Below are positions 946 to 39,570 of a stretch of DNA of 64,000 nucleotides, piece by piece. This stretch comes from Candidatus Parcubacteria bacterium (GTDB taxonomy: Bacteria > Patescibacteriota > Microgenomatia > UBA12405). Numbering within the stretch: position 1 is the stretch's first letter; each line of letters opens with the position of its first letter. The notes below the pieces were generated by a model that saw only the letters and a list, made by a program, of their open reading frames with translations, searched no databases and was not told the origin of the DNA. The translations under genes and the position numbers were made by a program. The DNA is taken from the NCBI GenBank assembly GCA_023396915.1, contig JAEWUV010000001.1:21206-85205 (forward strand), in the 5' to 3' direction.

Positions 946-1104
946 CAAAATAAATTTTCAAAATTCGTAACAAAAATTTAAATAAAATTATCTCCGCATT
1001 TTCTCCTTTTTTACTCCGCATCAATATTTTCAAACAAAACCTTCCTCCGGGTAAACCGGTATCCTCCCTTAAAAAAGGAGGAAGTATTCAAGCAAAAAAA
1101 AAGA

Positions 1105-1157
1105 CTGCTCCCTTTTTTAAGGGGAGCTGTCAAACGAAGTGAGACTGAGAGGTTTTT
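1105..1157. repeat. Composite GC-hairpin element, copy A: ctgctcccttttttaaggggagctgtc...gactgagaggttttt. On the minus strand it reads as a hairpin plus U-run, a possible terminator of the 95-aa gene.
   Basis: Same 5' half as the 7021-7077 copy. On the minus strand it reads gacagCTCCCCttaaaaaaGGGAGcagtcttttttttt. Further CCTCC...GGAGG and ccgggtaaaccgg hairpins lie at 1047-1082. Confidence 0.55.
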
Positions 1158-1654: not shown

Positions 1655-4618
1655 TCATTTCCCCAACACCACTCCCATCTTCACATCCTCATCCAGTTTC
1701 AAATTAAACAACACCTTCCCCCCCACAATACTTGCTGTCGGTTCAACTTGTAATGGTTGCCAACTCTCGGGATATGATATCAGACTCACCAAACTCGTTT
1801 CTCCAGTCCCTGGCTGTTTTTGAATATACTTCATATAAGTAAACTCCTTCCCCGCACCAAAATCAAAATTACTATTGTATTTCACTTCTAAAATTCTTTT
1901 CTTCAAAACCGGTACTGTCATCAAAAACCCTACCTCTTTTTTCCCATCAACCTCCTTAATATTTATTTCGCTATTAACATAAACTTTTTTAACTGAAGTA
2001 TCATATCCATCAGCCACACTAATTTGACTTAATTCCACCTCTTTTGGCAAATAAATTCTCACATAATTCTTATAATCTCCTCCTGGCCAATTATCATTTT
2101 TAGCTGTATTTTCATAAGTCACCCGAATTGTTCTGTTTAAACTCGACTGAGTAATTTCGGTTACTTCTTCAATCCCCTTTTGAATAAAATAATTTGCCTT
2201 ATTTACACCTAAATTTGCTTCAACTAAATACCAAAAATCAGGGACACAATTTTCCCGAGCACATTTTCCATTATAAATTTTCCCATCCCATCCCAAATCA
2301 TTAATTTTCTTGGCCAAACCACTATTATTAACCGCTATCTGAATCTCATTTTTTTGAAGCAAGTCCAACATCGAATCAACCAATAACCCCATTTTTTCTA
2401 TATTTAAATTTTTAATTTCCTCAAACATCTGAGCCCCTAGCCCTCCCAAGAAACTCGCCTTTTGCACCGACCCTGGAAAAAATTTAGTCTCAGCATAAAA
2501 CTCTGCCTGTTCATAAAGATTGTCAGCCGATATTTTTTCATCAAAATCAGGTACGTGAACTTCCCCTATTACCCCCAACATCGACTTAGCCACCGCCAAA
2601 TCAATCCCTATAATTCCATCAACCTTCTGTCCTGTTTCTTTTTCCAAAAACCACTGAATGTCAGCCCCTGTCTTCACAAAATCCGCCTTCCAGTTAGCAT
2701 CTCTCATATACCAATTTGCCTCATTTAAATGACTTTTAATTTCCCAAGGAGGTTCTACATGACCCTCCAATTGACCATCTGCTTCATAAACATCTTTAAT
2801 TTTAAACTCTGTCAATTTTCCACCCTTAAAAGTTATCAACCCATAACTACCAATAAACCCTCCTGTCGGCCTCAACTCCGACTCGTTTTGAAATAAAATC
2901 ATATATTTTCTTTCCTTACCGTCTACCCCCAAAAATTCTGGCAATAAATTAACTGTCTCTTTCCCCAAAGTAATCTTCACCCTAGTCTCATCCAAAACTT
3001 TTTCACCTTTCTGCAAAGACGACCTCCAACCAGCCGGCAACCAACTATAATCCCCTGATAATCTCGCTTGTAATAAACCAATATTATTTTCTATGTCCCC
3101 AATTCCTGTTTTTAGTATATCCAATTCCGTTGTCCAGTCTATCTGATTTCCCTTAAAAATAGCATTATTAATTTCTTCTGCCGCTTTAACTGTTGTTGGT
3201 AAACTTTTTTCTAAAATCAAAAAATCCATCAAAACTTTTAACCCACTTTGATAATTTCTCCCTAAAACAAAACTATTTAAACCCAATTCGCTTATTCTAG
3301 TATCAATCTCCTCTAATCCTTTAAGTCTTTTATCTGCCAAAATCTCAACCTGATTATATTTTTTATCCTTTATCAATTCCGGTATTTCTTTAACACTCCT
3401 CATAGCTCTATTTGTCACCCAACCCCATCTCATTGGTTCAAACAACAAAACTATTAAAAAACACACTACTATCACCCACCAATATCTCCACCCTTTCCAC
3501 CTTTTTTGTTTCTTTACCTTTTTCTCATTCTTTGTCTCACCAAAGATTTCAGCGACAGCGGCCTCCTCACTTTCCTCTTCAATATAATCTTTTTCCTTTG
3601 TCTCCTTTGTCTCCTTTTTCCCTATCAACCTTGGTAAATCAAAATCGTCACTTTTTTCCTCATAAACTACCATTTTTGGTTCTACCTTCTCCTTTTCTTC
3701 GATTTTTTCCTTTGTCTCACCAAAACTTTCAACGAAAGTGGGTTTTTCCTCTACCATCTCATTTTCCTCAACTAAAATATCAAATAATTTTTCATGTGTA
3801 TCCTTTTTTATTTTTTCTTCCATTTTTTTATCCTGAGCTTGTCGAAGGACACTTGCTGTTTTTCGTCTATTCTCTTCATCCATTAAAGAAAAAAAATACT
3901 GCAAAGTTCCATCAATTCCTTTATTAAAATCCATTTCTGCTTTCCAACGTAATTGTCTTTCACTTTCATCAGCTAATTTTTCATTCCCTTGATTAATTTC
4001 TTGATTAACTTCCATCACTTTAAATCTCGTCATTTTTGCCTTATCCATCAAAACCTTAGCTAGTTGTTCAAAGGTTATCTCTTTGCCTAAAAGTAAAAAA
4101 TATTCATTAGCCGTCCCCGACAAAAAACAAGCTCTTAAAATAGCTTCCACTAAATCACTTACAGCCAATAATCTAATTGTTTTACCGGCTTCAGGTAGCT
4201 CTAAATTCTTATTTCGCACCGCCTCTTTTATAACCTTAGACAAAAAATTATTTTCACCCATTCTTTCTCCATAAACACCCAAAGCCTCTACAATTCGCCA
4301 ATCTCTATCCAAAGTAGTTGCTTCCCGACTCAAATAACTTTTTCTCGTTTCATTGTCCACTGAAACCAAAACCAGTTTCTCTCCTTTAATTTTCCCCCAA
4401 TCGTTTTTATCGCCATAGAAATCAAAAACATAATCAAATTCCCCCTCAACTTCATCCAAATTCATTGCCCATTCAAAATTTTTTAAATCAGACAATCCAT
4501 TTATCATCTCTCCCACCCCAACCACATGAATATCTTTTTCTACCAATTCTTCCGCCAATTTTTTTGCCACAAAATGATCAATTCCCAAAATTAATGCTGT
4601 TGGAACCCCATGACTCAT
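1655..4618 (-). CDS. Large membrane-anchored protein with an N-terminal Rossmann/epimerase-like domain, an E/K-rich low-complexity linker, one TM segment and a C-terminal DUF4012-like domain.
   Basis: N-terminus ALILGIDHFVAKKLAEELVEKDIHVVGVG is a Rossmann-like motif. TM segment at WVIVVCFLIVLLF. C-terminal region contains LRPTGGFIGSYGLITF, characteristic of DUF4012. Two FGETK(E/N)(K/E)K repeats sit in the linker. Confidence 0.55.
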   Translation of the reverse strand: MSHGVPTALILGIDHFVAKKLAEELVEKDIHVVGVGEMINGLSDLKNFEWAMNLDEVEGEFDYVFDFYGDKNDWGKIKGEKLVLVSVDNETRKSYLSREATTLDRDWRIVEALGVYGERMGENNFLSKVIKEAVRNKNLELPEAGKTIRLLAVSDLVEAILRACFLSGTANEYFLLLGKEITFEQLAKVLMDKAKMTRFKVMEVNQEINQGNEKLADESERQLRWKAEMDFNKGIDGTLQYFFSLMDEENRRKTASVLRQAQDKKMEEKIKKDTHEKLFDILVEENEMVEEKPTFVESFGETKEKIEEKEKVEPKMVVYEEKSDDFDLPRLIGKKETKETKEKDYIEEESEEAAVAEIFGETKNEKKVKKQKRWKGWRYWWVIVVCFLIVLLFEPMRWGWVTNRAMRSVKEIPELIKDKKYNQVEILADKRLKGLEEIDTRISELGLNSFVLGRNYQSGLKVLMDFLILEKSLPTTVKAAEEINNAIFKGNQIDWTTELDILKTGIGDIENNIGLLQARLSGDYSWLPAGWRSSLQKGEKVLDETRVKITLGKETVNLLPEFLGVDGKERKYMILFQNESELRPTGGFIGSYGLITFKGGKLTEFKIKDVYEADGQLEGHVEPPWEIKSHLNEANWYMRDANWKADFVKTGADIQWFLEKETGQKVDGIIGIDLAVAKSMLGVIGEVHVPDFDEKISADNLYEQAEFYAETKFFPGSVQKASFLGGLGAQMFEEIKNLNIEKMGLLVDSMLDLLQKNEIQIAVNNSGLAKKINDLGWDGKIYNGKCARENCVPDFWYLVEANLGVNKANYFIQKGIEEVTEITQSSLNRTIRVTYENTAKNDNWPGGDYKNYVRIYLPKEVELSQISVADGYDTSVKKVYVNSEINIKEVDGKKEVGFLMTVPVLKKRILEVKYNSNFDFGAGKEFTYMKYIQKQPGTGETSLVSLISYPESWQPLQVEPTASIVGGKVLFNLKLDEDVKMGVVLGK

Positions 4619-4942
4619 ATCAATATTTTAACCTGTTTTTACTCCTTACTACCAACCAATAACTAATAACTAAACAATACGGTAATATTTCGGTTTATTT
4701 GCGGTTATTAACTATTAAAAATGTATGAACAGCCATGAGAGGGAAGTATCAGAACGTGAAAAAACGTCATAACGTCAATATGTGTATCTGTATTTACAAA
4801 AAATTAAATTCCAAGCTAAAAATCTCAAAAACAAACAGTCTAATAATCAAAATTTACGTTCGAACCTGATTCCAAAGTTGTCAAAACAAAATCATATTTT
4901 GTACATATTCCAAAGCAAAAACAACATCAATAATTTTATATT

Positions 4943-5030
4943 TAAATTCGAAACTATAATTTTTTGACGAATTTCAACGCGACAGCATTGACTGAGGCAA
5001 AAAATTCGTAGTGAGAATTTAAAAAAACAA
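4943..5030. repeat. R1 repeat copy 2.
   Basis: aaattcgaaactataattttttgacgaatttcaacgcgacagcattgactgaggcaaaaaattcgtagtgagaattt. Followed by the shared tail aaaaaaacaaaattgttatcaggccaaaaaat. Confidence 0.75.
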
Positions 5031-5066
5031 AATTGTTATCAGGCCAAAAAATAAAATTATCCAAAC

Positions 5067-6284
5067 CTACTTTCTCTTTACCAACATCCCTGTCATCAAC
5101 ACTACCGCTATCAATTCTGTCAAAACCGTTATCCAAGCCGCTCCATTAATTCCAAAAGAGGGGATTAATAATAAGTTCCCCCCAATATTTACCACCAAAG
5201 AAACTAGACCTACCAACAAAACCTGTTTTTGTTTTCCTAAAGCAATCAAAGTAAAACCCACTAAATGCCCCAAATAAGCAAATATCATCGCTACCAACAA
5301 AATTCTCAAAACCAATACTGATTTTTCAAATCCATTTCCAGACAATACCCCAATAATCCACGGCGCCAAAAAATAAACCACCCCAGACACCACTATTGCT
5401 CCTAGAAACATCAAAACCCCGGTTTGCCAAAAAAGTCTCTTTCTGTCGTTTTGCTTATTCGACAGCATTGGAAATACACTGTTAATCAAATAATATGCTG
5501 GCTGAACCAAGTTCCCATAAATTTTGTACGCCAAACCATAAAAAGCCAAATCTCTTACCCCGATCAACTGTTTAATCAAAATCGAATCTACCGCCCTGTC
5601 GTAACCAGAAAACAAAATCATATACACCCCCATCGGCCACGACTGTTTCAAAAAATTTACCCAAAAAGTTTTATTAGGTCTAACTAGTTTTAACCTACCC
5701 AAAAGTTTACCTGTTAAACCCAAACCAACCCCCAAGCTAATAATCCGGGCTATCAAATAAACCCCAAAAACTCCAATTAAATTAACTTGGGCTTGCCAAC
5801 CGAATAACCAAACCACAAATATTAATGGGAATAAAATATCTATCCATACTTTTAACTCCATTCTCATTTCTGTTTGAAAAATTATTTCCAAACTTCCAGC
5901 CACAGCCGTAAACCCAACCATCAACAAACCCATTAACGCCTCTATTTCTATCCCATCAAAACCACTCCACAGTAAAATTACTCCCAATCCTACCAAAAAC
6001 ATTAGTAGGGAAGCAAACAACCTAAACCAAGCCACCTGAATATAAATTTCTTTTCTTTTTTCTTCGCTTTCTTTTGCTGCCTCCCTAACCCCCATCACTT
6101 TAGTTCCAAAATCAGCTGCCGAATCCAACAGTAGCCACATTGAACCAATCAACATATAATTTCCATAAACTTCCACCCCCAATTTTCTGGTCAAAATCGC
6201 TGTTGTTACCAAACTCAAACCCACAGTAATACATTTCCCCAACACTTGTACCAAGGTGTTCCAAATCGGTTTCTTCATCAACAT
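5067..6284 (-). CDS. Polysaccharide biosynthesis protein / oligosaccharide flippase (Wzx-like, MOP superfamily).
   Basis: Polytopic membrane protein. N-terminus LGKCITVGLSLVTTAILTRKLGVEVYGNYMLIGSMWLLLDSAADFG is typical of Wzx/PST-family flippases. Confidence 0.6.
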   Translation of the reverse strand: MLMKKPIWNTLVQVLGKCITVGLSLVTTAILTRKLGVEVYGNYMLIGSMWLLLDSAADFGTKVMGVREAAKESEEKRKEIYIQVAWFRLFASLLMFLVGLGVILLWSGFDGIEIEALMGLLMVGFTAVAGSLEIIFQTEMRMELKVWIDILFPLIFVVWLFGWQAQVNLIGVFGVYLIARIISLGVGLGLTGKLLGRLKLVRPNKTFWVNFLKQSWPMGVYMILFSGYDRAVDSILIKQLIGVRDLAFYGLAYKIYGNLVQPAYYLINSVFPMLSNKQNDRKRLFWQTGVLMFLGAIVVSGVVYFLAPWIIGVLSGNGFEKSVLVLRILLVAMIFAYLGHLVGFTLIALGKQKQVLLVGLVSLVVNIGGNLLLIPSFGINGAAWITVLTELIAVVLMTGMLVKRK

Positions 6285-6312
6285 AAATCTATTTTATCCT
6301 AAAATTTTTATT

Positions 6313-6400
6313 TAAATTCGAAATCGTAATTTTTTAACGAATTTCAACACGCCAGTATTGACTGAGGTAAAAAATTCATGATGAGAATTTAAAAAAATAT
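6313..6400. repeat. R1 repeat copy 3, 29-116 nt upstream of the flippase start.
   Basis: aaattcgaaatcgtaattttttaacgaatttcaacacgccagtattgactgaggtaaaaaattcatgatgagaattt, then tail aaaaaaatattaccaagccgaaaaat. Confidence 0.75.
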
Positions 6401-6418: not shown

Positions 6419-7690
6419 TTAAACCAGTGCTAATACCAAAGACAACAGCCACATGTTCTGGGGTAGGGTAAACCAATAATGATCTACCATCCCACTCATA
6501 AAAATTACCCCCAATACCACCCAACTCCATTTACCCAAGTCTCCCCATTTAATCTTTTTAGCCAATAACAAAATTGTTCCCATTAATCCCAAAATTCCTA
6601 CCTCTGACACCAAAAGCAAAAATATATTATGTACCGGTTGTAACCAAAAAGTATGGTTATTTTTTAAAACATTAGGCAAATTAGCCAAATAATTTCCCAG
6701 CCCTACTCCTACCCAAGGTGATTGTCGAATCATTTCTATTGCCGCTAAATTTAATTGACCTCTTTTGATCATTCCATTCTCATCCCACCCACCAAAAAAA
6801 TTACCCAAAGGATAATTAAAATCAACCAATTTTAATAAAAACAAAATTAAAATTAATCCCAATACTACAAATTTAATTTTATTTCTGATTTTCCAATCAT
6901 TTTGCCAAAACCAAAAACACATTACTCCCAAAGTTAAAAACCAAATTGTTCTACTTCCAGTCAAAAATATTCCCATCAATCCCAACCAAAATACCCCCCA
7001 CCATTTAATTTTTTCTAAGACTGCTCCCTTTTTTAAGGGGAGCTGTCCCGATTTATCGGGACTGAGAGGTTTGTTCCTTATCCACCACACCAACCCCACT
7101 AACAAAAAACCAGCCAAACTATTCGGGTGAGAAAAAGTTCCATAAGCCCTTACTAAACCTGTATTAACCACTGACATTTGAGCAATTCCTATTGTATTAA
7201 AATCAAATCTTCTTTCACCCAAAAACCACCACAAACCATTCAAACTTCCACCTTTAGATATTTGTCCCAATGCTAAAAGTGACTCAAGTATTATCCAATA
7301 GGGAATAACTTTAATCATAATATCTCCAACAATTCTCTTATTTTTTACTACCCAAAACCAAAAATAACCCAATTCCACCACTCTCAACCACTTATAAACC
7401 GCCACCCATTTATTAATCGACACTAAAATATTTATCCCCACAAAAACTAATCCCAATAAACACCAAAAACTAACCTCCCATTTCCTCTTCTTACTTTCTG
7501 CCAACAAATTAGTTATTAACCAAAGTACAAAGACTAAATCTACTAAATAAAAAGTCGGTGAAAAATAATCAATCCTTATTCCCAACACTGTCGACCAATC
7601 AAACCAAAAATGTTTTCCCAATTGTGTTGGAATTAACAAAATCAACCAAAACAACAAAATTTTTGTCACCTTACCCCAAAATCCTTTCAC
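6419..7690 (-). CDS. O-antigen ligase/polymerase-like (Wzy_C family) membrane protein carrying an in-frame hairpin-repeat insertion.
   Basis: C-terminal motif PVHNIFLLLVSEVGILGLMG (H-N...E.G..G) is typical of the O-antigen ligase family. Polytopic. Residues RNKPLSPDKSGQLPLKKGAV are encoded by repeat copy B at 7021-7077. Confidence 0.6.
   Translation of the reverse strand: MKGFWGKVTKILLFWLILLIPTQLGKHFWFDWSTVLGIRIDYFSPTFYLVDLVFVLWLITNLLAESKKRKWEVSFWCLLGLVFVGINILVSINKWVAVYKWLRVVELGYFWFWVVKNKRIVGDIMIKVIPYWIILESLLALGQISKGGSLNGLWWFLGERRFDFNTIGIAQMSVVNTGLVRAYGTFSHPNSLAGFLLVGLVWWIRNKPLSPDKSGQLPLKKGAVLEKIKWWGVFWLGLMGIFLTGSRTIWFLTLGVMCFWFWQNDWKIRNKIKFVVLGLILILFLLKLVDFNYPLGNFFGGWDENGMIKRGQLNLAAIEMIRQSPWVGVGLGNYLANLPNVLKNNHTFWLQPVHNIFLLLVSEVGILGLMGTILLLAKKIKWGDLGKWSWVVLGVIFMSGMVDHYWFTLPQNMWLLSLVLALV
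7021..7077. repeat. Composite GC-hairpin element, copy B (ctgctcccttttttaaggggagctGTCCCGATttaTCGGGACtgagaggtttgttcc), in frame inside the ligase-like CDS.
   Basis: First 27 nt are identical to copy A at 1105. The second hairpin CCCGAT-tta-ATCGGG is shared with the copies at 25641 and 19314. Confidence 0.7.
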
Positions 7691-7729: not shown

Positions 7730-7830
7730 TTTGGCGCAGATAATATTTTTGAAGGGCGCAGTCTCTGAGTGGATATTACGATGGTTACAAGCCCGAAAAA
7801 ATTGTTATCAAGCCAAAAAATTACAATAAA
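7730..7830. repeat. R2 repeat copy 2 plus the shared tail, about 40 nt upstream of the ligase-like gene start.
   Basis: ttttggcgcagataatatttttgaagggcgcagtctctgagtggatattacgatggttacaagcccgaaaaaattgttatcaagccaaaaaat. Confidence 0.7.
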
Positions 7831-8313: not shown

Positions 8314-8354
8314 AGCCGCTATTTTAGCATAAAAATTTCCCGATAAAATAATAA

Positions 8355-8440
8355 ATTTAAATTTAGAAGTTATAATTTTTCAGCGAATTTCAACGCAAAG
8401 CATTGACTTAAGATGAAAAATTCGTAACAAGAAATTTAAA
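8355..8440. repeat. R1 repeat copy 4 (the most diverged), upstream of jag.
   Basis: aaatttagaagttataatttttcagcgaatttcaacgcaaagcattgacttaagatgaaaaattcgtaacaagaaattt. Confidence 0.65.
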
Positions 8441-8445
8441 TAGAA

Positions 8446-9925: not shown

Positions 9926-9954
9926 AAGTCGTATTTTAACATATAAAAAGTTAA

Positions 9955-10040
9955 TTATTATAAATTCGAAATCGTAATTTTTTGACGAATTTCAACACGC
10001 CAGTATTGACTGAGGCAAAAAATTCATGATAAGAATTTAT
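9955..10040. repeat. R1 repeat copy 5, 30-115 nt upstream of the rpmH start (minus strand).
   Basis: aaattcgaaatcgtaattttttgacgaatttcaacacgccagtattgactgaggcaaaaaattcatgataagaattt. Confidence 0.75.
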
Positions 10041-10051
10041 AAGTTTGCTTC

Positions 10052-19285: not shown

Positions 19286-19313
19286 ATTTAATTCTACCTT
19301 AATCTATTTTTTA

Positions 19314-19365
19314 AGCCCTCCCTTTTTCAAGGGAGGGTGCCCGATAGGGCGGGTGGGTTTAATTC
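19314..19365. repeat. Composite GC-hairpin element, copy D (agCCCTCCCtttttcaaGGGAGGGtgCCCGatagggCGGGtgggtttaattc), immediately upstream of the 5'-3' exonuclease start.
   Basis: Shares hairpin-1 architecture and the gggtgggtttaatt tail with copy C at 25641. Confidence 0.65.
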
Positions 19366-19379
19366 TGCTAAACTACATC

Positions 19380-20270
19380 ATGTCTAAATTATTGATTATT
19401 GACGGTCATGCTGTTATTCATCGGGCTTACCATTCCATTCCTAACCTTACTGTCAATGGCCAACCAGTCAACGCTCTTTATGGGTTTTATTCCATGTTAC
19501 TTTCGGCCATTTCTCAAATTAACCCCAAATATTTAATTGTTTGCCTTGACTCTCCTGGTCCAACCTTTCGTCAATCAGAATTTGTTGGCTATCGGGCCAA
19601 ACGCAAAGCTCCAGACAGGGAATTAATTTCTCAACTTCCTCTTTTAGCCACCACTCTTGAACAATCTAATATCAAAACTTTTGCCATAGGTGGGTACGAA
19701 GCAGATGATCTTATTGGCACCATCGCTCGTAAGGCCTCAAAAAAGAAGTTTATCAGTGAAACTATAATTATCACTGGCGACAAGGATTTGATGCAATTAG
19801 TCGACTCTAAAACCCATTTACTTATGCCTCTTCGTGGTCTTTCAGAGACTAAATTATTTAAATCTCCAGATGTTGTCGAAAAATTAGGAGTAAAACCAGA
19901 CCAAGTCGTCGACCTTAAAGCTTTAATGGGGGACATGTCTGACTGCTATCCTGGCGTTGCCGGTATTGGTCCAAAAGCCGCGACAAATCTTTTATCTGAA
20001 TATCAAAATTTAGACAATATCTACTCTCACCTAGAAGAAATTAAACCAAGCATCAAAGAAAAATTAGCCAAAGAAAAAGACAATGCCTATCTTTCCCAAA
20101 AATTAGCCACTATTATTGACAACATCCCTCTTGATTTCAAATTCTCAGAAAGCAAATGGAGCCCGGAAATTATCTGTAGTCTCAAAAATATGTTTAAAAG
20201 TTATAATTTTAAATCTCTCATTTCTCGTCTCGACCAAGACACCAAACCCCAACAATCTTCTTTATTTTAA
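19380..20270 (+). CDS. 5'-3' exonuclease / FEN (Pol I N-terminal-like). The real start is likely the ATG at 19380 (MSKLLIIDGHAV...) rather than the track start at 19353.
   Basis: LLIIDGHAVIHRAYHS N-terminus and acidic metal-binding residues. The upstream in-frame codons lie within the hairpin element. Confidence 0.85.
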   Translation: MSKLLIIDGHAVIHRAYHSIPNLTVNGQPVNALYGFYSMLLSAISQINPKYLIVCLDSPGPTFRQSEFVGYRAKRKAPDRELISQLPLLATTLEQSNIKTFAIGGYEADDLIGTIARKASKKKFISETIIITGDKDLMQLVDSKTHLLMPLRGLSETKLFKSPDVVEKLGVKPDQVVDLKALMGDMSDCYPGVAGIGPKAATNLLSEYQNLDNIYSHLEEIKPSIKEKLAKEKDNAYLSQKLATIIDNIPLDFKFSESKWSPEIICSLKNMFKSYNFKSLISRLDQDTKPQQSSLF

Positions 20271-20271
20271 T

Positions 20272-21381
20272 ATGAAAAAAAATAACTTAAAAATTGCCCT
20301 TGTCCATGATTATTTAAACGAATTTGGTGGTGCTGAAAGAGTTTTGTCAGTTCTTTCAGAAATATATCCAAAAGCTCCAATTTATACCGCTTTTTACAAA
20401 AAAAACTCTACTGCTTACAACCACTTTAAAAATAAAAAAATAATTCCTTCATGGGTTCATTACATTCCTTTTTTTAGTTCAAAATTACACAGCCCTTTGC
20501 GGTTTTTAACTCCTTTAATTTGGGGAAGTTTTAATTTCTCAAAATATGATGTCATTATCGCCTCATCAAGCTGGTACATCACCAAAGGTTTTAAAAAAGG
20601 CCCAAATACCAAAGAAATTTGTTATTGTCACACTCCACCTCGTTGGCTTTATGGTTTTAAAACATCAGTTGGTTTTCAAAAATATTGGATAGTCAAACTT
20701 TATGCTATCGTCGTTGGTCATTTTATGCGTCTTTACGATTTTAAACAGGCCCAAAAAGTCGATATTTTTGTCGCCAATTCTAAAAATGTTGCCAATCGTA
20801 TCAAAAAATTTTATCGTCGTGATTCTGTTGTTATTTATCCACCAGTTTCTCTTTTACCAGTTCCAAAAGTTGAAAAAGAAGATTTTTATTTAATTATTTC
20901 TCGTATTGTTGGTGCCAAAGGTATTGATTTAGCCGTCAAAGCCGCCAATAAATTAGGAATTAATCTAAAAATTGTTGGCGAGCCAGCTGGTTATTATTCC
21001 GAATATAAGGAACTTCAAAAAATATCTGGCAACAATGTTGAATTTTTAGGCCGTCTTTCAGATGAAAATCTAGTTAAATATTATACCAAAGCTAAGGCGT
21101 TTTTAGCTTTATCAACCGATGAAGATTTCGGTATGACCCCAGTTGAATCAATGATGGCCGGTACTCCAGTAATTGCTTTTAAAGGTGGTGGTTATTTAGA
21201 AACTATTATTGATGGTAAAACTGGTGTCTTCTTTGACCAACCTACTGTTGAATCATTAATCTCTGCCATCAAACGATTTCAAAAATTAAATATAAAATCG
21301 TCAGATTGTATTTCTCAAGCTCAAAATTTTTCCAAAGCCAAATTTATTTCCAAAATTAAAAAATTGGTTTCACAAAAATAA
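20272..21381 (+). CDS. Glycosyltransferase family 4.
   Basis: MKKNNLKIALVHDYLNEFGGAERV, GT4 C-terminal E..G motifs (GEPAGY, FGMTPVESMMAGTPVIAF). The track ORF start at 20116 overlaps the exonuclease and was rejected. Confidence 0.85.
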   Translation: MKKNNLKIALVHDYLNEFGGAERVLSVLSEIYPKAPIYTAFYKKNSTAYNHFKNKKIIPSWVHYIPFFSSKLHSPLRFLTPLIWGSFNFSKYDVIIASSSWYITKGFKKGPNTKEICYCHTPPRWLYGFKTSVGFQKYWIVKLYAIVVGHFMRLYDFKQAQKVDIFVANSKNVANRIKKFYRRDSVVIYPPVSLLPVPKVEKEDFYLIISRIVGAKGIDLAVKAANKLGINLKIVGEPAGYYSEYKELQKISGNNVEFLGRLSDENLVKYYTKAKAFLALSTDEDFGMTPVESMMAGTPVIAFKGGGYLETIIDGKTGVFFDQPTVESLISAIKRFQKLNIKSSDCISQAQNFSKAKFISKIKKLVSQK

Positions 21382-24796: not shown

Positions 24797-25639
24797 ATGC
24801 CTGAGCTTCCCGAAGTCGAAACAGTCCGTCTCTTTTTAGACAGCCATATTTTAAATAAAACCATTTCTAATATCGAGATTTTAAACACTAAGTCTTTTGT
24901 CGGCGATCCAAAATTAGCTCTTAACCAAAAAATAATTTCTACATCCCGTCTAGGTAAACAACTTTCAATTCATCTAAAAAATGGTCTAATTCTTCTTTTC
25001 CATCTCAAAATGACCGGTCAGATTATTATTGGCGATTCAGTTTTAGGTCATCCTACCCCAAAAGAAAACAAGTCTCATCTACCCAATAAATCTACTCGTC
25101 TCATTTTCACCTTTTCCGATAGCACTAAACTATTTTTCAACGATCAACGCAAGTTCGGTTGGGTTAAATTATTTACTCAAACTGAATTAAAAAATTTTCA
25201 GAAAAATGTTGGTGTCGATATTTTGGATTCGGCATTTACTAATAATTATTTTTACAACCAAATCCAAAAAACCTCCCGAGCTATCAAATTAGTTTTACTT
25301 GATCAATCAAAATTTGCCGGCATTGGTAATATCTATGACAATGATGCTTTGTTTTTAAGCCATATTCACCCCGAAACTTCAGCCAATAAATTAACTAAAA
25401 ATCAATCTCAAAAACTTCATCAAAATTTAGTCGATTTAATGAAAGAATCACTGTTTCATGGTGGTTCTACCGCCAAAGATAATAAATATATTCACCCCGA
25501 CGGTTCTGTTGGTCAACATCAATATTTCTTTCGGGTTTATCAAAGAGCAGGGGAACCTTGTCTTGTCTGTAAAACGCCTATTAAACGAATAAAAATCGGT
25601 GGTCGGGGTACTTTCTTTTGTCCCCATTGTCAGAATTAA
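24797..25639 (+). CDS. mutM: Formamidopyrimidine-DNA glycosylase (Fpg/MutM).
   Basis: MPELPEVETVR N-terminus (catalytic Pro2, Glu3) and C-terminal zinc finger CLVCKTPIKRIKIGGRGTFFCPHCQ. Confidence 0.9.
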   Translation: MPELPEVETVRLFLDSHILNKTISNIEILNTKSFVGDPKLALNQKIISTSRLGKQLSIHLKNGLILLFHLKMTGQIIIGDSVLGHPTPKENKSHLPNKSTRLIFTFSDSTKLFFNDQRKFGWVKLFTQTELKNFQKNVGVDILDSAFTNNYFYNQIQKTSRAIKLVLLDQSKFAGIGNIYDNDALFLSHIHPETSANKLTKNQSQKLHQNLVDLMKESLFHGGSTAKDNKYIHPDGSVGQHQYFFRVYQRAGEPCLVCKTPIKRIKIGGRGTFFCPHCQN

Positions 25640-25640
25640 A

Positions 25641-25693
25641 AGCCTCCTTTTTTAAGGGAGGTCCCGATTTATCGGGGGTGGGTTTAATTTTCC
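25641..25693. repeat. Composite GC-hairpin element, copy C (agCCTCCttttttaaGGGAGGTCCCGATttATCGGGggtgggtttaattttcc), between mutM and the iscRS fusion.
   Basis: Two consecutive hairpins followed by the gggtgggtttaatt tail. May act as the mutM terminator and/or the isc leader. Confidence 0.65.
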
Positions 25694-32017: not shown

Positions 32018-33748
32018 ATGCGTTGGTTGGCCAAAACTATTTTTATTTTTGTCTTATTTTTATTTCTTCACCAATCTACTCTCGCCAACGAAAAGTTTGT
32101 TACTATAGTCAACCCGGTCAGAAGTCGCGAGTTGTGGAAAGACAAGAGCTTAAAACCTCTAGATAATCAATATCAAATCATCGACAGGCTTCAACTCAAG
32201 GCCACCTGGTTACTCCAAAATGATGTTTTTAGTGACGTCGATTTAGTTTCTAAATTTAAAAAATTTAACTCCAATCAAGAATTCGGACTTTTTTTGGAAA
32301 TCAGTCCCCATTTAGCCACCAAAGCCAGAGTTTATTACCCCAGCCAAACTGAGTGGTATTCACCCAAGGCTGTTTTTCTTTCTGCCTATAATCCCACCGA
32401 CCGAAAAAAACTCATTGATCAGATAGTTTTAGATTTCAAAAATACTTTCGGCTTTATCCCAAAATCTGCCGGTGCTTGGTGGATTGACAGTTGGTCCCAA
32501 AATTATTTGGCTCAAAAGTACAAAATTTATTCATTAATGATTGTTGCTGACCAAAAAACCACCGATAATTACGGGGTTTGGGGACAGTGGTGGGGTTATC
32601 CTTACATTGCTTCATCTCAAAATATTTTAGTTCCCGGAAATTCTCAAACTGTTGTTATCCAATGGGCTCAGAGGGATTTAGAAAAAGCTTACAACGGTTC
32701 TGGACCTTTAGTTTCTAACTATTCACTCCAGGCCAATGATTATTTAAGTCAAAAGTTAGATTTTAACTATTTTAAAAATTTAGCTAGTCAATATTTATCA
32801 GTTGAACCATTGGGACAAATTACCGTTGGTTTAGAAACCGGTATGGAAAGTGTTGGTTATGAACAGGAATATAAAAAACAGTTAACCTGGATTTCAGAAA
32901 ATAAAATAAATCCTCTTACCATGAGTCAGTTTTCTGATGTTTACAAACAAATTTACAATAACCACAATCCATCAGAAATTAAGTTGGGGAATTGGTCATT
33001 AACTTCTCAATCACGTAGCAATCCAAATTTATCTGATGAAATTATTTATCAGCCAAATATTAGTTTTTCTGACAAATTTATTGCCGACCAAAATTCCTTT
33101 TTAAATCGGGATTTGAATAATTTATCAGCCAAAATTGAAATTTTTTATTTTCCTTTTTTTCTCTTATTAATCCCAGTTTTATGTTGGTACAGTAAAAGTT
33201 TTGTCCCGGTTATTTTTACTCTCATATTATATTTTCCTATTTTTAGATCATTTTATGGATCTGGTTGGAAAATATTTTATGGTCCGGTTCTAAATAATTT
33301 ATTACTTTGGCAGGTTTTAATCTTAATTATTTTTACAGTTTTAATTACTAAATTTAATCAAAAATTTAAAATTCACTGGACATCCTGGTTTTCTGTCTGG
33401 GTTTTGAATTTACTTCTTTTCACTGCTAGGTATTCAATTGTCGACGGTCAACGCTATTTTGGTTTTTTGCTCGATAAATTTAGGTTTATCGGAATTACTC
33501 TCGGAAATAGGGTTCACTTTTTTAACCAAGATTTATCCGGTTTGGTTGCTTCGTCTATGCTCAAATTTGACCCGAGTTGGATTTGGCAAAACTGGTGGTC
33601 CTGGACTTTGGTTTATCCAATCATGGAAATAATTTTAGTTTTAATAATTAACAAAATTATTCTCAAAAAGTTAAGATTTTTTATGTTTATTTTGTCAGGC
33701 TTATTTATAATTTACTTATTCAACCAAATTCCTTTATGGGTAAAGTAA
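32018..33748 (+). CDS. Hypothetical exported protein with a C-terminal multi-TM region (576 aa).
   Basis: Signal peptide or TM at the N-terminus, Trp-rich soluble domain, hydrophobic C-terminal third. Overlaps the next gene by 13 nt. Confidence 0.4.
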   Translation: MRWLAKTIFIFVLFLFLHQSTLANEKFVTIVNPVRSRELWKDKSLKPLDNQYQIIDRLQLKATWLLQNDVFSDVDLVSKFKKFNSNQEFGLFLEISPHLATKARVYYPSQTEWYSPKAVFLSAYNPTDRKKLIDQIVLDFKNTFGFIPKSAGAWWIDSWSQNYLAQKYKIYSLMIVADQKTTDNYGVWGQWWGYPYIASSQNILVPGNSQTVVIQWAQRDLEKAYNGSGPLVSNYSLQANDYLSQKLDFNYFKNLASQYLSVEPLGQITVGLETGMESVGYEQEYKKQLTWISENKINPLTMSQFSDVYKQIYNNHNPSEIKLGNWSLTSQSRSNPNLSDEIIYQPNISFSDKFIADQNSFLNRDLNNLSAKIEIFYFPFFLLLIPVLCWYSKSFVPVIFTLILYFPIFRSFYGSGWKIFYGPVLNNLLLWQVLILIIFTVLITKFNQKFKIHWTSWFSVWVLNLLLFTARYSIVDGQRYFGFLLDKFRFIGITLGNRVHFFNQDLSGLVASSMLKFDPSWIWQNWWSWTLVYPIMEIILVLIINKIILKKLRFFMFILSGLFIIYLFNQIPLWVK

Positions 33749-35076
33749 TTTCCCAAAAAATTAAAATTCTCTTTTTCTCCTTAGCCTTTATCATTTTATT
33801 TCTTTTGCCTGCCAAAACTTTTGATTCAATTGATGGGTTAATGTATTTAAACACAGCCAAAAGTATTGTTTATCAGGGTAATTTTTCAATCAATGAAAAA
33901 ATACCCAGTTTAATCAAGGGAGTTACCGGAGAATTCTATTCTGTTGGTGGTCTAGGTTGGACTATTTGTTTAGTAATTCCAATTTGGATTAATAAAATTG
34001 CTGGCGGAAATATTGAAAATATTCAACTTGTTGCCAATTTTACTAATCCGTTTTTATCTTTTTGTTTACTTATAGTTTTATATAAACTCTATTCACTTAT
34101 TTCTAAAAATCAAAAAATTGCTTTAATTGTCGCCGCTATCACTGTTTTTTCCACTAACTTATTACCCTTATCCAAGCATTCATTTGCCCACATGTTTTCA
34201 ATTTTAACCATAATTTCCAGTATTTATTTTGGGTTGAAATGCTCTTCACTTAAGAAAACTAAAAATCTGATTCTATCAGGAATCTTTTATGGATTATTTA
34301 TTCTTAGTTACAATTATAGTTTTGTTTTGGTTAGTTTTGTCTTATTTTTAGTCTTAATTTTCAAAAAAGTTCTTAATAAAAAAATTATCACTTACTGGTT
34401 TATTGGAGTAATCCCGTTTATCTCTCTCTTCTTCTTTTACAATTACTTCCGGTTCGGAAATATTTTTGAAACTGGTTATCTTGCCGGCAGCAGTACCAGT
34501 ACAGAAACCAATCTTAGAAATAGTTTTATCGACGGATTTTGGGGGTTACTCTTAAGTCCTGGTAAAAGTATTTGGGTTTATAGCCCTATTCTGATTTATA
34601 GTTTTTATTTAAGTCTTAAAAATATCAAAAAAAACTGGGTTTATGCCCTGTTTGTAAGTTTCCTCACCTTAAACACTATTTTCTATGCCAGACTGGCTTT
34701 TTGGAGTGGAGAACTAAGTTATGGCCCTCGATATTTTGCCATACTTATTCCATTTGGTGGTTTAGTTTTGGTTCAGCATTGGCACCAAATTAATAAAAAA
34801 ATCTTGACTGGTTTAGTGCTACTTGGGCTATGGGTTCAGTTTGTTGGAGTATCAATCCCTTATACAAAACAGTACCAATGGTACGATATGGAATTTATGT
34901 GTGTTGGCAGTCAAGGCCTAAGTCGTCAAGGCGAGTTTGATTATTGGTCTATTGGCCAATTTATTCCTCGATATTCTCCTCCATATAGGCTTAAAAAAGA
35001 ATTATTTCAAAGATGGAATAATCTAATTTTTAAACGAAATGGGGATCTTCCTGATTTTTGGTGGGTAAAAGACTAA
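33736..35076 (+). CDS. Polytopic membrane protein, GT39/ArnT-like glycosyltransferase family (tentative).
   Basis: More than 10 TM helices. Gene context with the other envelope glycosylation genes. Confidence 0.4.
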   Translation: MGKVISQKIKILFFSLAFIILFLLPAKTFDSIDGLMYLNTAKSIVYQGNFSINEKIPSLIKGVTGEFYSVGGLGWTICLVIPIWINKIAGGNIENIQLVANFTNPFLSFCLLIVLYKLYSLISKNQKIALIVAAITVFSTNLLPLSKHSFAHMFSILTIISSIYFGLKCSSLKKTKNLILSGIFYGLFILSYNYSFVLVSFVLFLVLIFKKVLNKKIITYWFIGVIPFISLFFFYNYFRFGNIFETGYLAGSSTSTETNLRNSFIDGFWGLLLSPGKSIWVYSPILIYSFYLSLKNIKKNWVYALFVSFLTLNTIFYARLAFWSGELSYGPRYFAILIPFGGLVLVQHWHQINKKILTGLVLLGLWVQFVGVSIPYTKQYQWYDMEFMCVGSQGLSRQGEFDYWSIGQFIPRYSPPYRLKKELFQRWNNLIFKRNGDLPDFWWVKD

Positions 35077-35684
35077 CTCTTAAACTTTTCTCCCCACGCC
35101 TCTACCAACGAATAACAACAACCGCAATAATTTTGCTTATAGAACCCGCTGGTTTTTAAATCTTTTACAACTTTTTTCGGTATCAAAAATTTTATTCCAT
35201 ATTCTTTTTCTAGCGTCTTTCCGATTTCCTCAATTTTATTTTTATTCTGATAATGACTGGTTAATAGGGTAGTTGAAACCGCCTCAAAATTATTTTTAGA
35301 TGCATACTCAAACGTCTTTCTTAATCTCAACTCCCAACACCCATCGCATCTGGTTTTACTTTTTAATGGCTCCATTTCATCAAGGGGAGCTGTCCGCAGG
35401 ACTGAGGGGTTTTGTTTTAAAGTCTCCCTTTCTTCAAAGGGAGAAGCGGCGTAGCCGAGAGGGATTTTAGAAAACCATTCTCTTGGGCTCCAATCAGCCA
35501 CCACCAATTTAATTTTATTCTCTTCCGCTATTTTTTGAATCGCTTTTAATCTGGATAAATATTCTGCTCTCGGATGAATATTTGGATTATAAAAATAAGC
35601 CGTTACTTCAATGTCTTCATTCTTCAATGACGCCACCATTTTTACCAAACAATCCGCACAACAAGCATGAATTAGAACCTTCAT
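35073..35684 (-). CDS. queH: Epoxyqueuosine reductase QueH (DUF208) containing an in-frame insertion of about 34 codons derived from tandem hairpin repeats.
   Basis: HACCADC, YFYNPNIHPRAEYLSRL, RCDGCWELRLRKT, TTLLTSHYQNK are QueH hallmarks. The insert is GYAASPFEERETLKQNPSVLRTAPLDEMEPLKSK. Confidence 0.75.
   Translation of the reverse strand: MKVLIHACCADCLVKMVASLKNEDIEVTAYFYNPNIHPRAEYLSRLKAIQKIAEENKIKLVVADWSPREWFSKIPLGYAASPFEERETLKQNPSVLRTAPLDEMEPLKSKTRCDGCWELRLRKTFEYASKNNFEAVSTTLLTSHYQNKNKIEEIGKTLEKEYGIKFLIPKKVVKDLKTSGFYKQNYCGCCYSLVEAWGEKFKS
35369..35470. repeat. Two tandem copies of the composite GC-hairpin element (copies E1 and E2) inside queH, in frame.
   Basis: E1 is gGCTCCatttcatcaaGGGGAGCtGTCCgcaGGACtgaggggtttt. 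E2 is gtCTCCCtttcttcaaaGGGAGaagCGGCgtaGCCGagagggatttt. Confidence 0.7.
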
Positions 35685-36841
35685 TTTTTTGCCAAAAGCT
35701 CCCTTATTCCTTCTAACCCTTCTTTTGCCTCTCCGCTTTCAAAATGTTTTCTGGCCGGCTCTAACTTTTCAATCAACCAATCAGCCAAGCCATTTTTTAA
35801 ATCTAATGGGAATAATTCTCCTGATTTATAGTCTTCAATTAATTTATTAACGTTTGTATACAACAAATCACCTCCAAATTTTTCTGGTCTAGAAATTTTA
35901 AATTCACCCGTTTTTTCTCCCCAAAAGACTAAGGTTTCTACCCAATTTATTAATGGGTTAAACTCAATTTCTTGTGGTGGTCCGTATGCTTTTCTCACTT
36001 TATCCCTAATTTCATCAGGTGTGTCATGAATAAAAATTGCACTATTTGGCTTTGATTTACTCATTTTCAAACTTTCTTCAACTGCAATTTCTCTGTTTTC
36101 TTCAACTGCTTTTTTATCTTGTTTAATTTCAAAAGCTTTATCTGGTCCAGTTAATCCCGCAATCAAATTTTGGTGAATTGCAATTGGAGCAATTACTTCA
36201 CCTTTTTTATTTCTAAGTGGGTTAATAGTTAGTTTTTTGGCCACATCTCGGGCAATCACATGGGCCTTTCTTTGGTCCATTCCTGCATGAGCAATGTTTG
36301 CTTTTAAGGTAAAAATATCGGCCACTTGCAGTGGAGGATAAAACAGTGTTGACATATTTACGTCTGTCCCTTGAGTCTTACCCATAATCGAAATTGACCG
36401 TAAATTTCTGGATAAAGTTACATTACTACCTACTTCCATAAATGTTTCCCAGTGAATCAAGTTGTTTTCATATAAATCTCGTCCCATCACAAATTCAACC
36501 TGATTTTCTTCCACTCCAAAACATTTTAACGAGGCAATTAACCCTTGTTTAAAGTAATGCTCAGTTGCCCAGCGAATATTTTCCCAGTTCCCTCCAAGTT
36601 TGTTATTTAAATAAGAATGGAAATCTGCCAAAAATATCTTACATTTAATCCCAGCTTTTATAAAATCAGCAATTTTCCCCATCGACATTAATCCTGTGCC
36701 TAAGTGAATTAATCCTGAAATTTCAAATCCAATATAATGATTTATTTCAGTTCCAGATTCAATTAGCTTCCTTAAATCTTCTTCGGTCAAAACTTCCTGA
36801 CAGTTTCTGGTTATCAAATGGATTTTTTCTTCAGTAGTCAT
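35681..36841 (-). CDS. tyrS: Tyrosyl-tRNA synthetase, archaeal/eukaryal type. Probable start is MTTEEK at 36841; the track start is at 36895.
   Basis: YIGFEISGLIHLG (HIGH-like), KMSKS, RPEKFGGDL and LDLKN align closely to M. jannaschii-type TyrRS. Confidence 0.85.
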   Translation of the reverse strand: MTTEEKIHLITRNCQEVLTEEDLRKLIESGTEINHYIGFEISGLIHLGTGLMSMGKIADFIKAGIKCKIFLADFHSYLNNKLGGNWENIRWATEHYFKQGLIASLKCFGVEENQVEFVMGRDLYENNLIHWETFMEVGSNVTLSRNLRSISIMGKTQGTDVNMSTLFYPPLQVADIFTLKANIAHAGMDQRKAHVIARDVAKKLTINPLRNKKGEVIAPIAIHQNLIAGLTGPDKAFEIKQDKKAVEENREIAVEESLKMSKSKPNSAIFIHDTPDEIRDKVRKAYGPPQEIEFNPLINWVETLVFWGEKTGEFKISRPEKFGGDLLYTNVNKLIEDYKSGELFPLDLKNGLADWLIEKLEPARKHFESGEAKEGLEGIRELLAKK

Positions 36842-36852
36842 ATTTTTTAGCC

Positions 36853-37338
36853 TTATTTTTTGTAGTATTCCTTTACTTGGAACAAGACATACCAACTTAA
36901 CCCGGTTCCGATAATTAATTTTCCTAAATCCATACTCAAAAGTGCCCCGACTGCATTAATTAAAGACATCCAAAACATTATTTTCCAAACTCTTTTTTCT
37001 CTTTTAAATAATCCCGGAATAATTATTACTGCCAAAATTGCTCCTACCAACAAAAATAATATTGAAAGTGAATAAGTCAGACCAAAATGCATCCCTCTCA
37101 TAAAGTAAAACGGAGTCAACATCGAGAAACCCAAAAGTGCTAAAACCATTGGAATAGTTACTATCAAACTTAAAATCACCAAATAAGGGGCAATTTTAAC
37201 TATTACTTCCCGTACTTTTTTAGGTAATTGCCAAACTTTTTTGGTAAAAAACTCATCTAATTTTTTCTCTAAATTATTAACCATCTCGACAAAACCAGTT
37301 GCTTTTTTATTTGTTTCTTTTTTTACTTCTTTTTTCAT
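36853..37338 (-). CDS. Hypothetical membrane protein (161 aa, about 4 TM).
   Basis: Hydrophobic helices. No motif. Confidence 0.45.
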   Translation of the reverse strand: MKKEVKKETNKKATGFVEMVNNLEKKLDEFFTKKVWQLPKKVREVIVKIAPYLVILSLIVTIPMVLALLGFSMLTPFYFMRGMHFGLTYSLSILFLLVGAILAVIIIPGLFKREKRVWKIMFWMSLINAVGALLSMDLGKLIIGTGLSWYVLFQVKEYYKK

Positions 37339-39489: not shown

Positions 39490-39523
39490 TATAAATACTA
39501 AAAAATTTTTTGAATTAATATTT

Positions 39524-39570
39524 CTCCCTTTCATCAAGGGGAGATATCAATTTATTGACAGAGGGGTTTT
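39524..39570. repeat. Composite GC-hairpin element, copy F (CTCCCtttcatcaaGGGGAGatATCAATttaTTGAcagaggggtttt), ending 3 nt before the kinase ATG.
   Basis: Hairpin1 + hairpin2 + AGAGGGG SD-like tail, then tttaa and ATG. Confidence 0.65.

Follow-up and report, generated by a model that had tools for sequence, protein, structure and literature searches.

A two-hairpin repeat in frame within a Wzy_C gene occupies a long-lived insertion hot spot and belongs to a dispersed family that brackets DUF559 nuclease genes

Introduction

Here we describe a 54-nt, two-hairpin DNA element that lies in frame within an intact gene of the Wzy_C (O-antigen-ligase) family in Candidatus Parcubacteria bacterium (GenBank assembly GCA_023396915.1, contig JAEWUV010000001.1). 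The stretch analyzed, hereafter the window, comprises the 64,000 nt from position 21,206 to 85,205 of that contig, and positions are those of the window unless a locus is named. Relative to an ancestral short Lys-rich loop between two transmembrane helices, the element, which we call copy B, is an insertion. Its length is a multiple of three, it is free of stops in the frame of the gene and, as read from the sequence, it is translated as 18 extra loop residues. The loop that houses it has long been a hot spot of insertion, at which element subfamilies turn over. We consider it probable that copy B stands alone as a non-autonomous member of a dispersed family of selfish two-hairpin repeats, which a DUF559 nuclease spreads and selection filters.

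Results

Copy B and its host gene

The host gene, the element and its parts are the following.

Host gene: 6419-7690, minus strand, encodes a 423-aa polytopic Wzy_C protein (O-antigen-ligase family), intact and co-linear with its orthologs.
Copy B: 7019-7072, plus strand, 54 nt, two hairpins, in frame and antisense in the Wzy_C gene; encodes K207-V224 (KPLSPDKSGQLPLKKGAV).
Hairpin P1 of copy B: 7023-7043, plus strand, GCTCCCTTT/TTT/AAGGGGAGC, nine pairs including one T-G wobble.
Hairpin P2 of copy B: 7045-7062, plus strand, GTCCCGA/TTTA/TCGGGAC.
3' tail of copy B: 7063-7072, plus strand, G-rich, conserved TGAGAGGTTT (family consensus TGAGGGGTT).

The host protein matches Pfam PF04932 (Wzy_C) over residues 233-371 with 56 bits against a cut-off of 31.7 (E=5e-15). 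It has about 12 predicted helices and more than 2000 homologs with the same Pfam domain which, where named, belong to Woesebacteria or Shapirobacteria. Searching the PDB with its sequence returned no match at E<=0.1, and Foldseek against the PDB returned nothing at E<=0.001 for a model whose mean pLDDT is only 69. A sequence-only reading of this stretch had placed a hairpin element in frame within an O-antigen-ligase-like gene, and the Wzy_C match and the open frame bear this out: no stop interrupts the minus strand across the 18 codons of copy B (coding strand 7072 to 7019: AAA CCT CTC AGT CCC GAT AAA TCG GGA CAG CTC CCC TTA AAA AAG GGA GCA GTC). The encoded peptide given in that reading, RNKPLSPDKSGQLPLKKGAV, is indeed found at residues 205-224. 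The position it assigned to the element is also right, but the extent of 57 nt (7021-7077) is to be replaced by the 54 nt given above. An assembly artefact is unlikely, since another, shorter ENA contig encodes an identical host protein, and 3.6 kb of the window (33,573-37,184) agree base for base with the 906,714-bp ENA scaffold LEMO22-1_SAMN17215431_METAG-scaffold_1.

Copy B shares two blocks with an intergenic copy elsewhere in the window, copy A. The identity over the first 27 nt that had been noticed before is real and extends to an exact block of 31 nt, AAGACTGCTCCCTTTTTTAAGGGGAGCTGTC (1101-1131 and 7017-7047), for which 100 shuffles gave 0 matches. The second block consists of 13 nt, GACTGAGAGGTTT (1143-1155 and 7060-7072), and between the two blocks the copies differ, with CCGATTTATCGG in B against AAACGAAGTGA in A. 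Both strands of copy B fold as two adjacent hairpins with z of about -3.8 to -4 relative to shuffles; the plus strand folds better, P1 having nine pairs on that strand and six on the mRNA strand. A covariance model, R1, was built from 39 training rows, namely 37 copies of other organisms together with copies A and B, and scores copy B at 59 bits (E=4e-16, A and B being among the training rows). No terminator-like site is present at copy B, where the hairpin is followed by AGUCUUAGAAAAAA, and neither A nor B was picked up by simple scans for terminators and promoters.

The Wzy_C loop is an insertion hot spot

Gene order around Wzy_C is kept in the orthologs examined (dnaA-rnpA-yidD-yidC-R3H-WzyC-Polysacc_synt-DUF4012-RNHCP-ftsH); these are true orthologs. 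An alignment of 31 sequences is well conserved except between W203 and W230. The segment between the two flanking Trp-rich helices comprises 11-15 residues in 23 of 114 orthologs (for example WWKYKNEIKNKIYW) and 18-41 in the other 91, and the short loops are rich in Lys. At the DNA level one of the empty orthologs, P0008, has A/T-rich Lys/Asn codons only and no hairpin. Without 7019-7072 the query would read WIRN-LEKIKW, similar to basal loops such as WWKNKEEIKNKIWW. AlphaFold, run with the ortholog alignment, places a low-confidence coil at 207-220 between two helices (189-206 and 221-244), with pLDDT below 50 for residues 211-221. The alignment and the predicted topology thus support the suggestion made from the sequence that the element is a tolerated in-frame insertion in a loop. 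Judging from the Lys/Arg-rich flanks and the positive-inside rule, this loop is probably cytoplasmic.

Expanded loops can be grouped into peptide types that recur among the orthologs, and every type starts directly after the same Lys.

Query type: PLSP..GQLPLKKGAV.
Further types: SLSAxPLLPLTKGRLL; NPSLDRxGL; PSALRAPPLTGRL; PTLPSLEKGGL; QNPLSLDxLGTFPLKRA; and others.

Reading the loop of individual orthologs as DNA revealed a canonical element in P0013, the subfamily of window copy C2 in P0007, the subfamily of window copy E in P0107, and an intact P2 next to a decaying P1 in P0018. All four of these element-bearing orthologs carry it at one codon position and in one orientation. P0026, with the loop SLFRSSNYQRV (the 'ALLRSTSYGRV' type), has no hairpin at the DNA level, and this loop type may not derive from the element. 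At least four loop states occur among proteins that are at least 71% identical to the query. On a neighbour-joining tree of 110 taxa, built without the loop, ten loop classes require 49 changes against 72 with shuffled labels; the classification is rough, most query-type cassettes having been placed in 'other', and so is the count of 49. Basal loops appear in several separate parts of the ortholog tree.

In the comparison of the query with P0013, 50 of 54 nt of the element are identical, whereas identity is 71.7% over the remainder of the gene and 56% for third codon positions. An element more conserved than its host gene implies that the occupant is much younger than the divergence of the genes, has been homogenized by conversion, or is constrained. 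P0057 shares PLSPDKSGQLPLKKGAV with the query (17 identical residues) at an overall identity of about 56%. Orthologs with the same residues in genomes free of the repeat family would speak against an insertion; the residues are shared by the distant P0013, P0020 and P0057, but the genome of P0013, the one that could be checked, has the family as well (L104, CAZCFJ01). The idea of a recent insertion not yet purged, also raised from the sequence, is only partly right: copy B is no one-off event but one occupant of a long-lived hot spot with turnover.

A second variable Lys-rich loop follows the second helix (columns 86-105 of alignment A1) and contains element-like peptides in P0020 (KPSVLRTSPLKRA), P0092, P0018, P0037 and P0052; the query has none there.

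A second hot spot in QueH and copies in other proteins

A tandem pair of elements resides in a second host gene of the window.

QueH: 35073-35684, minus strand, matched by Pfam in two separate parts.
Copy C1: 35363-35413, plus strand, in frame and antisense within QueH, R1 38.6 bits.
Copy C2: 35417-35468, plus strand, of another subfamily, in frame in QueH and in tandem with C1, R1 E=0.004.

Aligned with the QueH of T. maritima (7LC5), residues 3-72 and 108-196 correspond, and residues 73-107 replace nine residues. These 35 codons (35364-35468) are the tandem C1 and C2, two different subfamilies placed just before the RC..C motif. Among 115 QueH orthologs, the stretch leading up to this motif has 4-7 residues in 25, and most others hold one to three cassettes of the peptide types known from Wzy_C (NPSVLRTAPLD.., PFPNPSLDRAG, PTLPSLKKGG, SPFDKRETL). 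The QueH loop is thus shown to be a hot spot like that of Wzy_C, holding different subfamilies, tandem copies or none.

Other proteins are hosts too. Thirteen of 62 copies in AT-rich contigs lie inside long open reading frames (ORFs), in both orientations, and in a related genome two copies (L246, 8655-8708 and 8784-8834) lie inside a 999-aa DUF4012 gene. The window's own DUF4012 gene (1655-4618) has no significant element copy.

Anatomy and host range of the family

Members of the family consist, in order, of hairpin P1, GCTGTC, a variable hairpin P2 and the tail GACTGAGRGGTT. The consensus reads (T/G)GCTCCCCT, loop, AAGGGGAGC, T, GTC[stem-loop]GAC, TGAGGGGTT, with GAGCTGTC and GACTGAGGGGTT as the conserved flanks and with the 3' strand of P1, AAGGGGAGC, as a conserved box. 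In copy B's orientation to the gene the conserved boxes have no stop in any frame, and in the opposite orientation there is always a TGA in one frame. The base of P2, GTC...GAC, is kept across the family, and its interior varies and covaries: the three inner pairs show 74 cells changed on both sides against 27 in shuffles, a value that none of 500 shuffles reached. The loops of P2 are mostly GNA or GNNA, with one class having tandem G-A pairs, and the interior of copy B, CCGATTTATCGG, recurs in L130, L146 and L235. In L137, L141, L158, L161, L180, L225 and L236, P2 carries an A-rich insert of 40-50 nt between GCTGTC and GACTGAGGGG; from these inserts, the hairpin can host extra sequence. An apparent likeness of GAGCTGTCCGA to a tRNA-Ser D-arm was discarded, since the interior of P2 is variable.

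A search pattern taken from copy B (AAGGGGAGCTGTC, 3-20 nt, GACTGAGRGGTT) was run against a collection with one genome per species and matched at least 120 loci, where by our estimate about 0.04 chance matches are expected. Among the matches listed, most are gut Clostridia, and the other labels are Deinococcus, Calditrichia, WOR-3, Sumerlaeota, Desulfohalobiaceae, Parcubacteria and Bacteroidales. Isolate genomes with the element include the megaplasmids of two Deinococcus species and Vescimonas fastidiosa. A second pattern limited to P1 and CTGTC matched at least 120 loci in metagenomes, nearly all of which continue with a hairpin and GACTGAGGGGT; the contigs among its listed matches range from 30 to 70% GC. 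The family is present in several bacterial phyla. The AT-rich contigs L104, L064, L066 and L096 are titled 'uncultured Gammaproteobacteria'; the label of L104 is wrong (assembly CAZCFJ01, encoding the Microgenomates protein P0013), and the other three look similar to it.

Copies occur singly, as inverted pairs and in tandem arrays, at a density of about one per 4-8 kb, with inverted neighbours in L010, L075, L110 and L003. The flanks of 257 copies show no direct repeat of at least 3 nt standing out at any offset and hence no target-site duplication, no flank motif beyond T at -1 and TT at +1 and +2, and no terminal inverted repeats, the two ends of the element not being complementary. No Rfam 15 model covers the element at gathering scores over the window, and at E<=1 no model matched it in six loci rich in canonical copies. 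A tRNA/tmRNA scan found none. Riboswitch, ribozyme, attC, CRISPR repeat, KOPS (FtsK orienting polar sequence) and translational bypass were set aside as identities, because copies are found in either orientation within ORFs, form tandem arrays and surround a nuclease gene. A search of the literature, judged largely from titles and abstracts, turned up no description of the family or of a link between DUF559 and repeats.

Elements bracket DUF559 nuclease genes

Clustering of all ORFs within 2.5 kb of elements at about 240 loci yielded a recurrent small protein of about 120-140 aa that is a clear member of DUF559 (Pfam PF04480; 94-126 bits against a cut-off of 20.6 in four representatives). DUF559 is part of the Vsr clade of PD-(D/E)XK nucleases, and one member of this clade is a homing endonuclease (PMC3424549). 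A preceding cluster of neighbours, from 18 loci, was rejected as an ABC-ATPase superfamily lumped by single linkage, and no Y1 transposase is present among the clustered ORFs, a survey of these neighbourhoods rather than of whole genomes.

By tblastn the DUF559 gene is found in 15 loci of 32-63% GC, and in 15 of 15 it is directly bracketed by elements, often by clusters of them. These loci had been picked by the element; in three more, fetched by the protein alone, the only R1 matches in 6-12 kb abut the two ends of the gene. All 18 DUF559 genes examined are accordingly bracketed. Arrays can be dense in gut Clostridia: L003 has at least 17 copies of alternating orientation in 1.6 kb (4115-5739) around its DUF559 gene, and L085 (4212-4369, with a tandem period of 52 nt) and L117 (2765-3693) likewise have dense arrays around theirs.

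Such a gene is also present in the genome from which the window derives, as follows from the 3.6-kb identity to the scaffold mentioned above. P0283, annotated as PF04480 (L247, 5928-6415), lies at about 862.9 kb of that 906,714-bp scaffold and is flanked by two inverted, tail-out copies of the subfamily of window copy D, the downstream of which supplies its last codons.

Other copies and repeats in the window

In total R1 detects eight copies in the window at E<0.006, seven on the plus strand and one on the minus strand. In 73 kb of orthologous loci it detects 17, of which 13 are in the corresponding orientation. The copies outside the two host genes are all intergenic.

Copy A: 1103-1155, plus strand, subfamily of B, begins 10 nt past the stop of RNHCP, R1 56 bits.
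Copy G: 1036-1088, minus strand, inverted relative to A at a distance of 12 nt, R1 E=0.005.
Copy D: 39517-39570, plus strand, tail GAGGGGTTTTAA abutting the ATG at 39573, R1 30 bits.
Copy E: 19310-19361, plus strand, divergent subfamily in a divergent intergenic region, R1 E=7e-4.
Copy F: 25637-25687, plus strand, E-like subfamily with the same P2 interior as B, R1 E=0.004.

Copies G and A (1036-1156) constitute a tail-out inverted doublet with the geometry of the pair that brackets DUF559, 12 nt taking the place of the gene. The doublet resembles a REPIN, and a canonical copy is present at the orthologous site, the RNHCP-ftsH spacer of L121. On its minus strand copy A consists of an extended P1 directly followed by nine U, which looks like a terminator that the simple scanner missed. 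Copy D has the subfamily of the copies that flank the DUF559 gene of this genome. Copy E precedes a 5'-3' exonuclease gene (ATG at 19380) by about 18 nt, and canonical copies precede the orthologous gene (AAACTAC..ATG TCT AAA) in L125, L146 and L204, which indicates that intergenic sites are also reused or long-lived. Often an intergenic copy begins only a few bases away from a stop codon.

GC skew is strongly negative throughout the window (-0.08 to -0.50 over 1-64000) and does not change sign at dnaA (10214), resembling the unusual one-directional skew reported for UBA1400 Microgenomates (PMC7143001). Seven of the eight copies are on the C-rich strand, as are 37 against 12 in skewed AT-rich contigs. 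The orientation bias of the element may be linked to this skew.

Two further repeats were observed. An intergenic repeat of 96 nt has five copies (1533-1628, 4932-5027, 6302-6397, 8348-8443 and 9950-10045; identity to the reference copy 64-86%). Since every copy precedes a gene on the minus strand, the repeat may serve as a common promoter or leader. Its sequence includes TTGACTGAGG, reminiscent of the hairpin element's tail box. A direct repeat of 73 nt, 92% identical between its copies, has one copy just upstream of the Wzy_C gene start (7746-7818) and the other near the A/G pair (878-950), there probably upstream of ftsH.

Discussion

A proposed mode of spread

The element appears to be selfish DNA of the kind represented by repetitive extragenic palindromic (REP) sequences and Rickettsia palindromic elements (RPEs), and it is probably served by a DUF559 nuclease rather than by a RAYT transposase. 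In the mechanism that we propose, a candidate DUF559 (Vsr-like PD-(D/E)XK) nuclease would recognize the conserved core and cleave at or beside the hairpins. The element would then spread, or one copy would overwrite another, as the break is repaired from other copies by homing or gene conversion, or else through cut-and-paste. Selection would retain the copies that are in frame and stop-free in tolerant A-rich (Lys/Asn-coding) loops or that lie in intergenic spacers. Two filters would create the hot spots, one being that A-rich DNA is preferred or tolerated and the other purifying selection against whatever is out of frame, contains stops or lies outside a loop. Recognition by such a nuclease would account for a core conserved across hosts of 30-70% GC, and templated repair triggered by it for the replacement of subfamilies at one position, the growth of tandem arrays and the lack of target duplications.

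On a wider scale, and with slightly less than even confidence, we suggest that the element and its DUF559 clade may represent an undescribed REPtron-like selfish system across several phyla, in which the bracketed nuclease gene would be the autonomous unit and by which Lys-rich loops of essential proteins in bacteria of the Candidate Phyla Radiation (CPR) would be continually rewritten.

Several points weigh against the spread of a selfish repeat by a DUF559 nuclease. The 64-kb window itself contains no DUF559 gene, and DUF559 could be cargo or a preferred target instead of the mobilizing enzyme. The same site and orientation in four orthologs could stem from one ancient insertion kept canonical by conversion, and the high conservation of the element could reflect a host function. 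No closely related pair of empty and filled sites was found for copy B. Finally, a mechanism that depends on single-stranded DNA or on replication would also be compatible with the bias in orientation (7 to 1 in the window, 37 to 12 in the skewed AT-rich contigs).

Alternative explanations

The most serious variant is a single insertion in an ancestor of these Microgenomates. No further insertions would have followed at this site; non-allelic gene conversion from other copies in the genome would have replaced the occupant, and some lineages would have lost it. The shared codon and orientation of the four orthologs read as DNA fit this, as do the common starting point of the other peptide cassettes, the conservation of the element far above that of the host gene's silent sites, and the P1 and tail shared by different subfamilies, which could seed conversion. 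Yet basal loops are scattered over several parts of the ortholog tree, arrays of two to three tandem cassettes in QueH need additions and not just overwriting, and other loops of the Wzy_C protein, as well as other proteins, have been colonized in some lineages only. We regard this history as possible but unlikely.

A domesticated module, in which the mRNA hairpin or the 18-residue peptide benefits the host through a translation pause between transmembrane helices, mRNA stability or binding by the loop, would explain why nucleotide conservation exceeds the neutral expectation and why the loop is filled in about 80% of orthologs. Intergenic copies placed just past stops, and the terminator-like copy A on the transcribed strand, point in the same direction. 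Host function is nonetheless less likely than an ancient insertion with conversion, because one in five orthologous loops is empty and some occupants decay (P0018). Occupants also vary in sequence and length, unrelated proteins contain the same elements in either orientation with respect to the gene, disorder is predicted for the encoded loop, and the mRNA has the less stable strand, with six pairs in P1 against nine. Overall, we find domestication improbable.

Still less probable in our judgment is that the element is of the REP/REPIN or IS200-like type, that a Y1 (HUH) transposase moves it as single-stranded DNA, and that DUF559 is only a bystander. The hairpin architecture, the inverted doublets, the lack of target-site duplication and the strand-orientation bias would all agree with it, as would the presence of GNA/GNNA loops (GCGAAGC, for example), whose stability in single-stranded DNA is very high. 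It is at odds with the neighbourhoods of about 240 loci, where ORFs within 2.5 kb include no Y1 transposase and DUF559 is recurrent and always directly flanked, with the absence of the GTAG/CGTC tag of REP superfamilies, and with a cross-phylum distribution where REPs are normally lineage-specific.

That there was no insertion, the loop being an ordinary fast-evolving one and its intergenic look-alikes arising by chance or by copying out of the gene, can be dismissed for practical purposes: loops between transmembrane helices do vary in length, but 31 and 13 bases are identical to an intergenic copy where 0 are expected, the match to a model built mostly from other phyla has E=4e-16, and the same element occurs in QueH and in more than 240 unrelated loci.

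Comparison with known systems

RPEs, as described by Ogata et al. 2000 and summarized in PMC10969869 and PMC3733652, are palindromes of about 100-150 bp restricted to Rickettsia and relatives, and these summaries give no known cognate enzyme. The likeness is one of behaviour, and no sequence similarity is claimed: dispersed palindromes in a small genome, many of them in frame in functional genes, are translated as surface or loop peptides compatible with the fold. As for RPEs, copies are found in frame and without stops in intact ORFs (B; C1 with C2) in addition to intergenic sites (A, D, E, F, G), and orthologs without the element show the insertion to be at a structurally tolerant position. 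Unlike RPEs, the present elements are about 50 nt long, have a defined two-hairpin core across phyla, reuse the same loops and are linked to DUF559. Homology to RPE families is not expected, given a CPR host and an element a third of the RPE length.

REP sequences with their BIME and REPIN arrangements and RAYT enzymes, together termed REPtrons (PMC3116915, PMC3733652, PMC3479197), are short GC-rich hairpins mostly found just downstream of genes; they occur as singles, inverted doublets and clusters, lack target-site duplications and flank one small nuclease-type gene, and some copies are intragenic (PMC3733652). The present element is likewise a short imperfect palindrome that forms a stable hairpin and exists in many copies per genome, with inverted doublets such as the G/A pair and those of L010, L075, L110 and L003. 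It lacks the tetranucleotide GTAG/CGTC that REPs have at one end (PMC3733652), and the gene recurrently flanked, among the clustered neighbours, is DUF559 and not RAYT. In contrast to REPs it combines two different hairpins with a G-rich tail, and its core is common to hosts of 30-70% GC in different phyla.

Miniature inverted-repeat transposable elements such as Correia, ERIC and Nezha (PMC10969869) are also small non-autonomous repeats that create in-frame fusions when they land in genes. They have terminal inverted repeats and the target-site duplications of DDE transposases, neither of which was found for solitary copies of our element.

For the nuclease, the closest precedent is I-Bth0305I (PDB 3r3p), a Vsr-family homing endonuclease of the VSR/DUF559 clade (PMC3424549). 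It shares the fold family and promotes its own spread through cleavage followed by templated repair, which is how we propose that copies of the present element are replaced and added. I-Bth0305I sits in a group I intron of a phage gene, whereas the DUF559 gene described here is free-standing and bracketed by hairpin repeats. The anatomy of the element is thus closest to REP/REPIN and the phenomenon matches RPEs and intragenic REPs; the candidate partner enzyme differs, and the host range is unusually broad.

Conclusions

In-frame palindromic insertions have so far been mostly a Rickettsia curiosity, and here they are found in the small, tightly packed genomes of CPR bacteria. The turnover at the hot spot and the association with DUF559 make the finding more interesting than a single tolerated insertion. 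One and the same protein loop with different subfamilies, with decayed or tandem copies, or with none, offers a natural system in which to follow how selfish DNA makes peptide segments and which positions tolerate them. In practical terms, annotated proteins of CPR bacteria and gut Clostridia repeatedly contain spurious peptides and vary in length because of these elements. The association also provides a lead on two problems, namely what moves REP-like hairpins where there is no RAYT and what role the widespread DUF559 'endonuclease-like' proteins have. If true, the REPtron-like reading would give DUF559 a function and would explain the conservation of the element across phyla.

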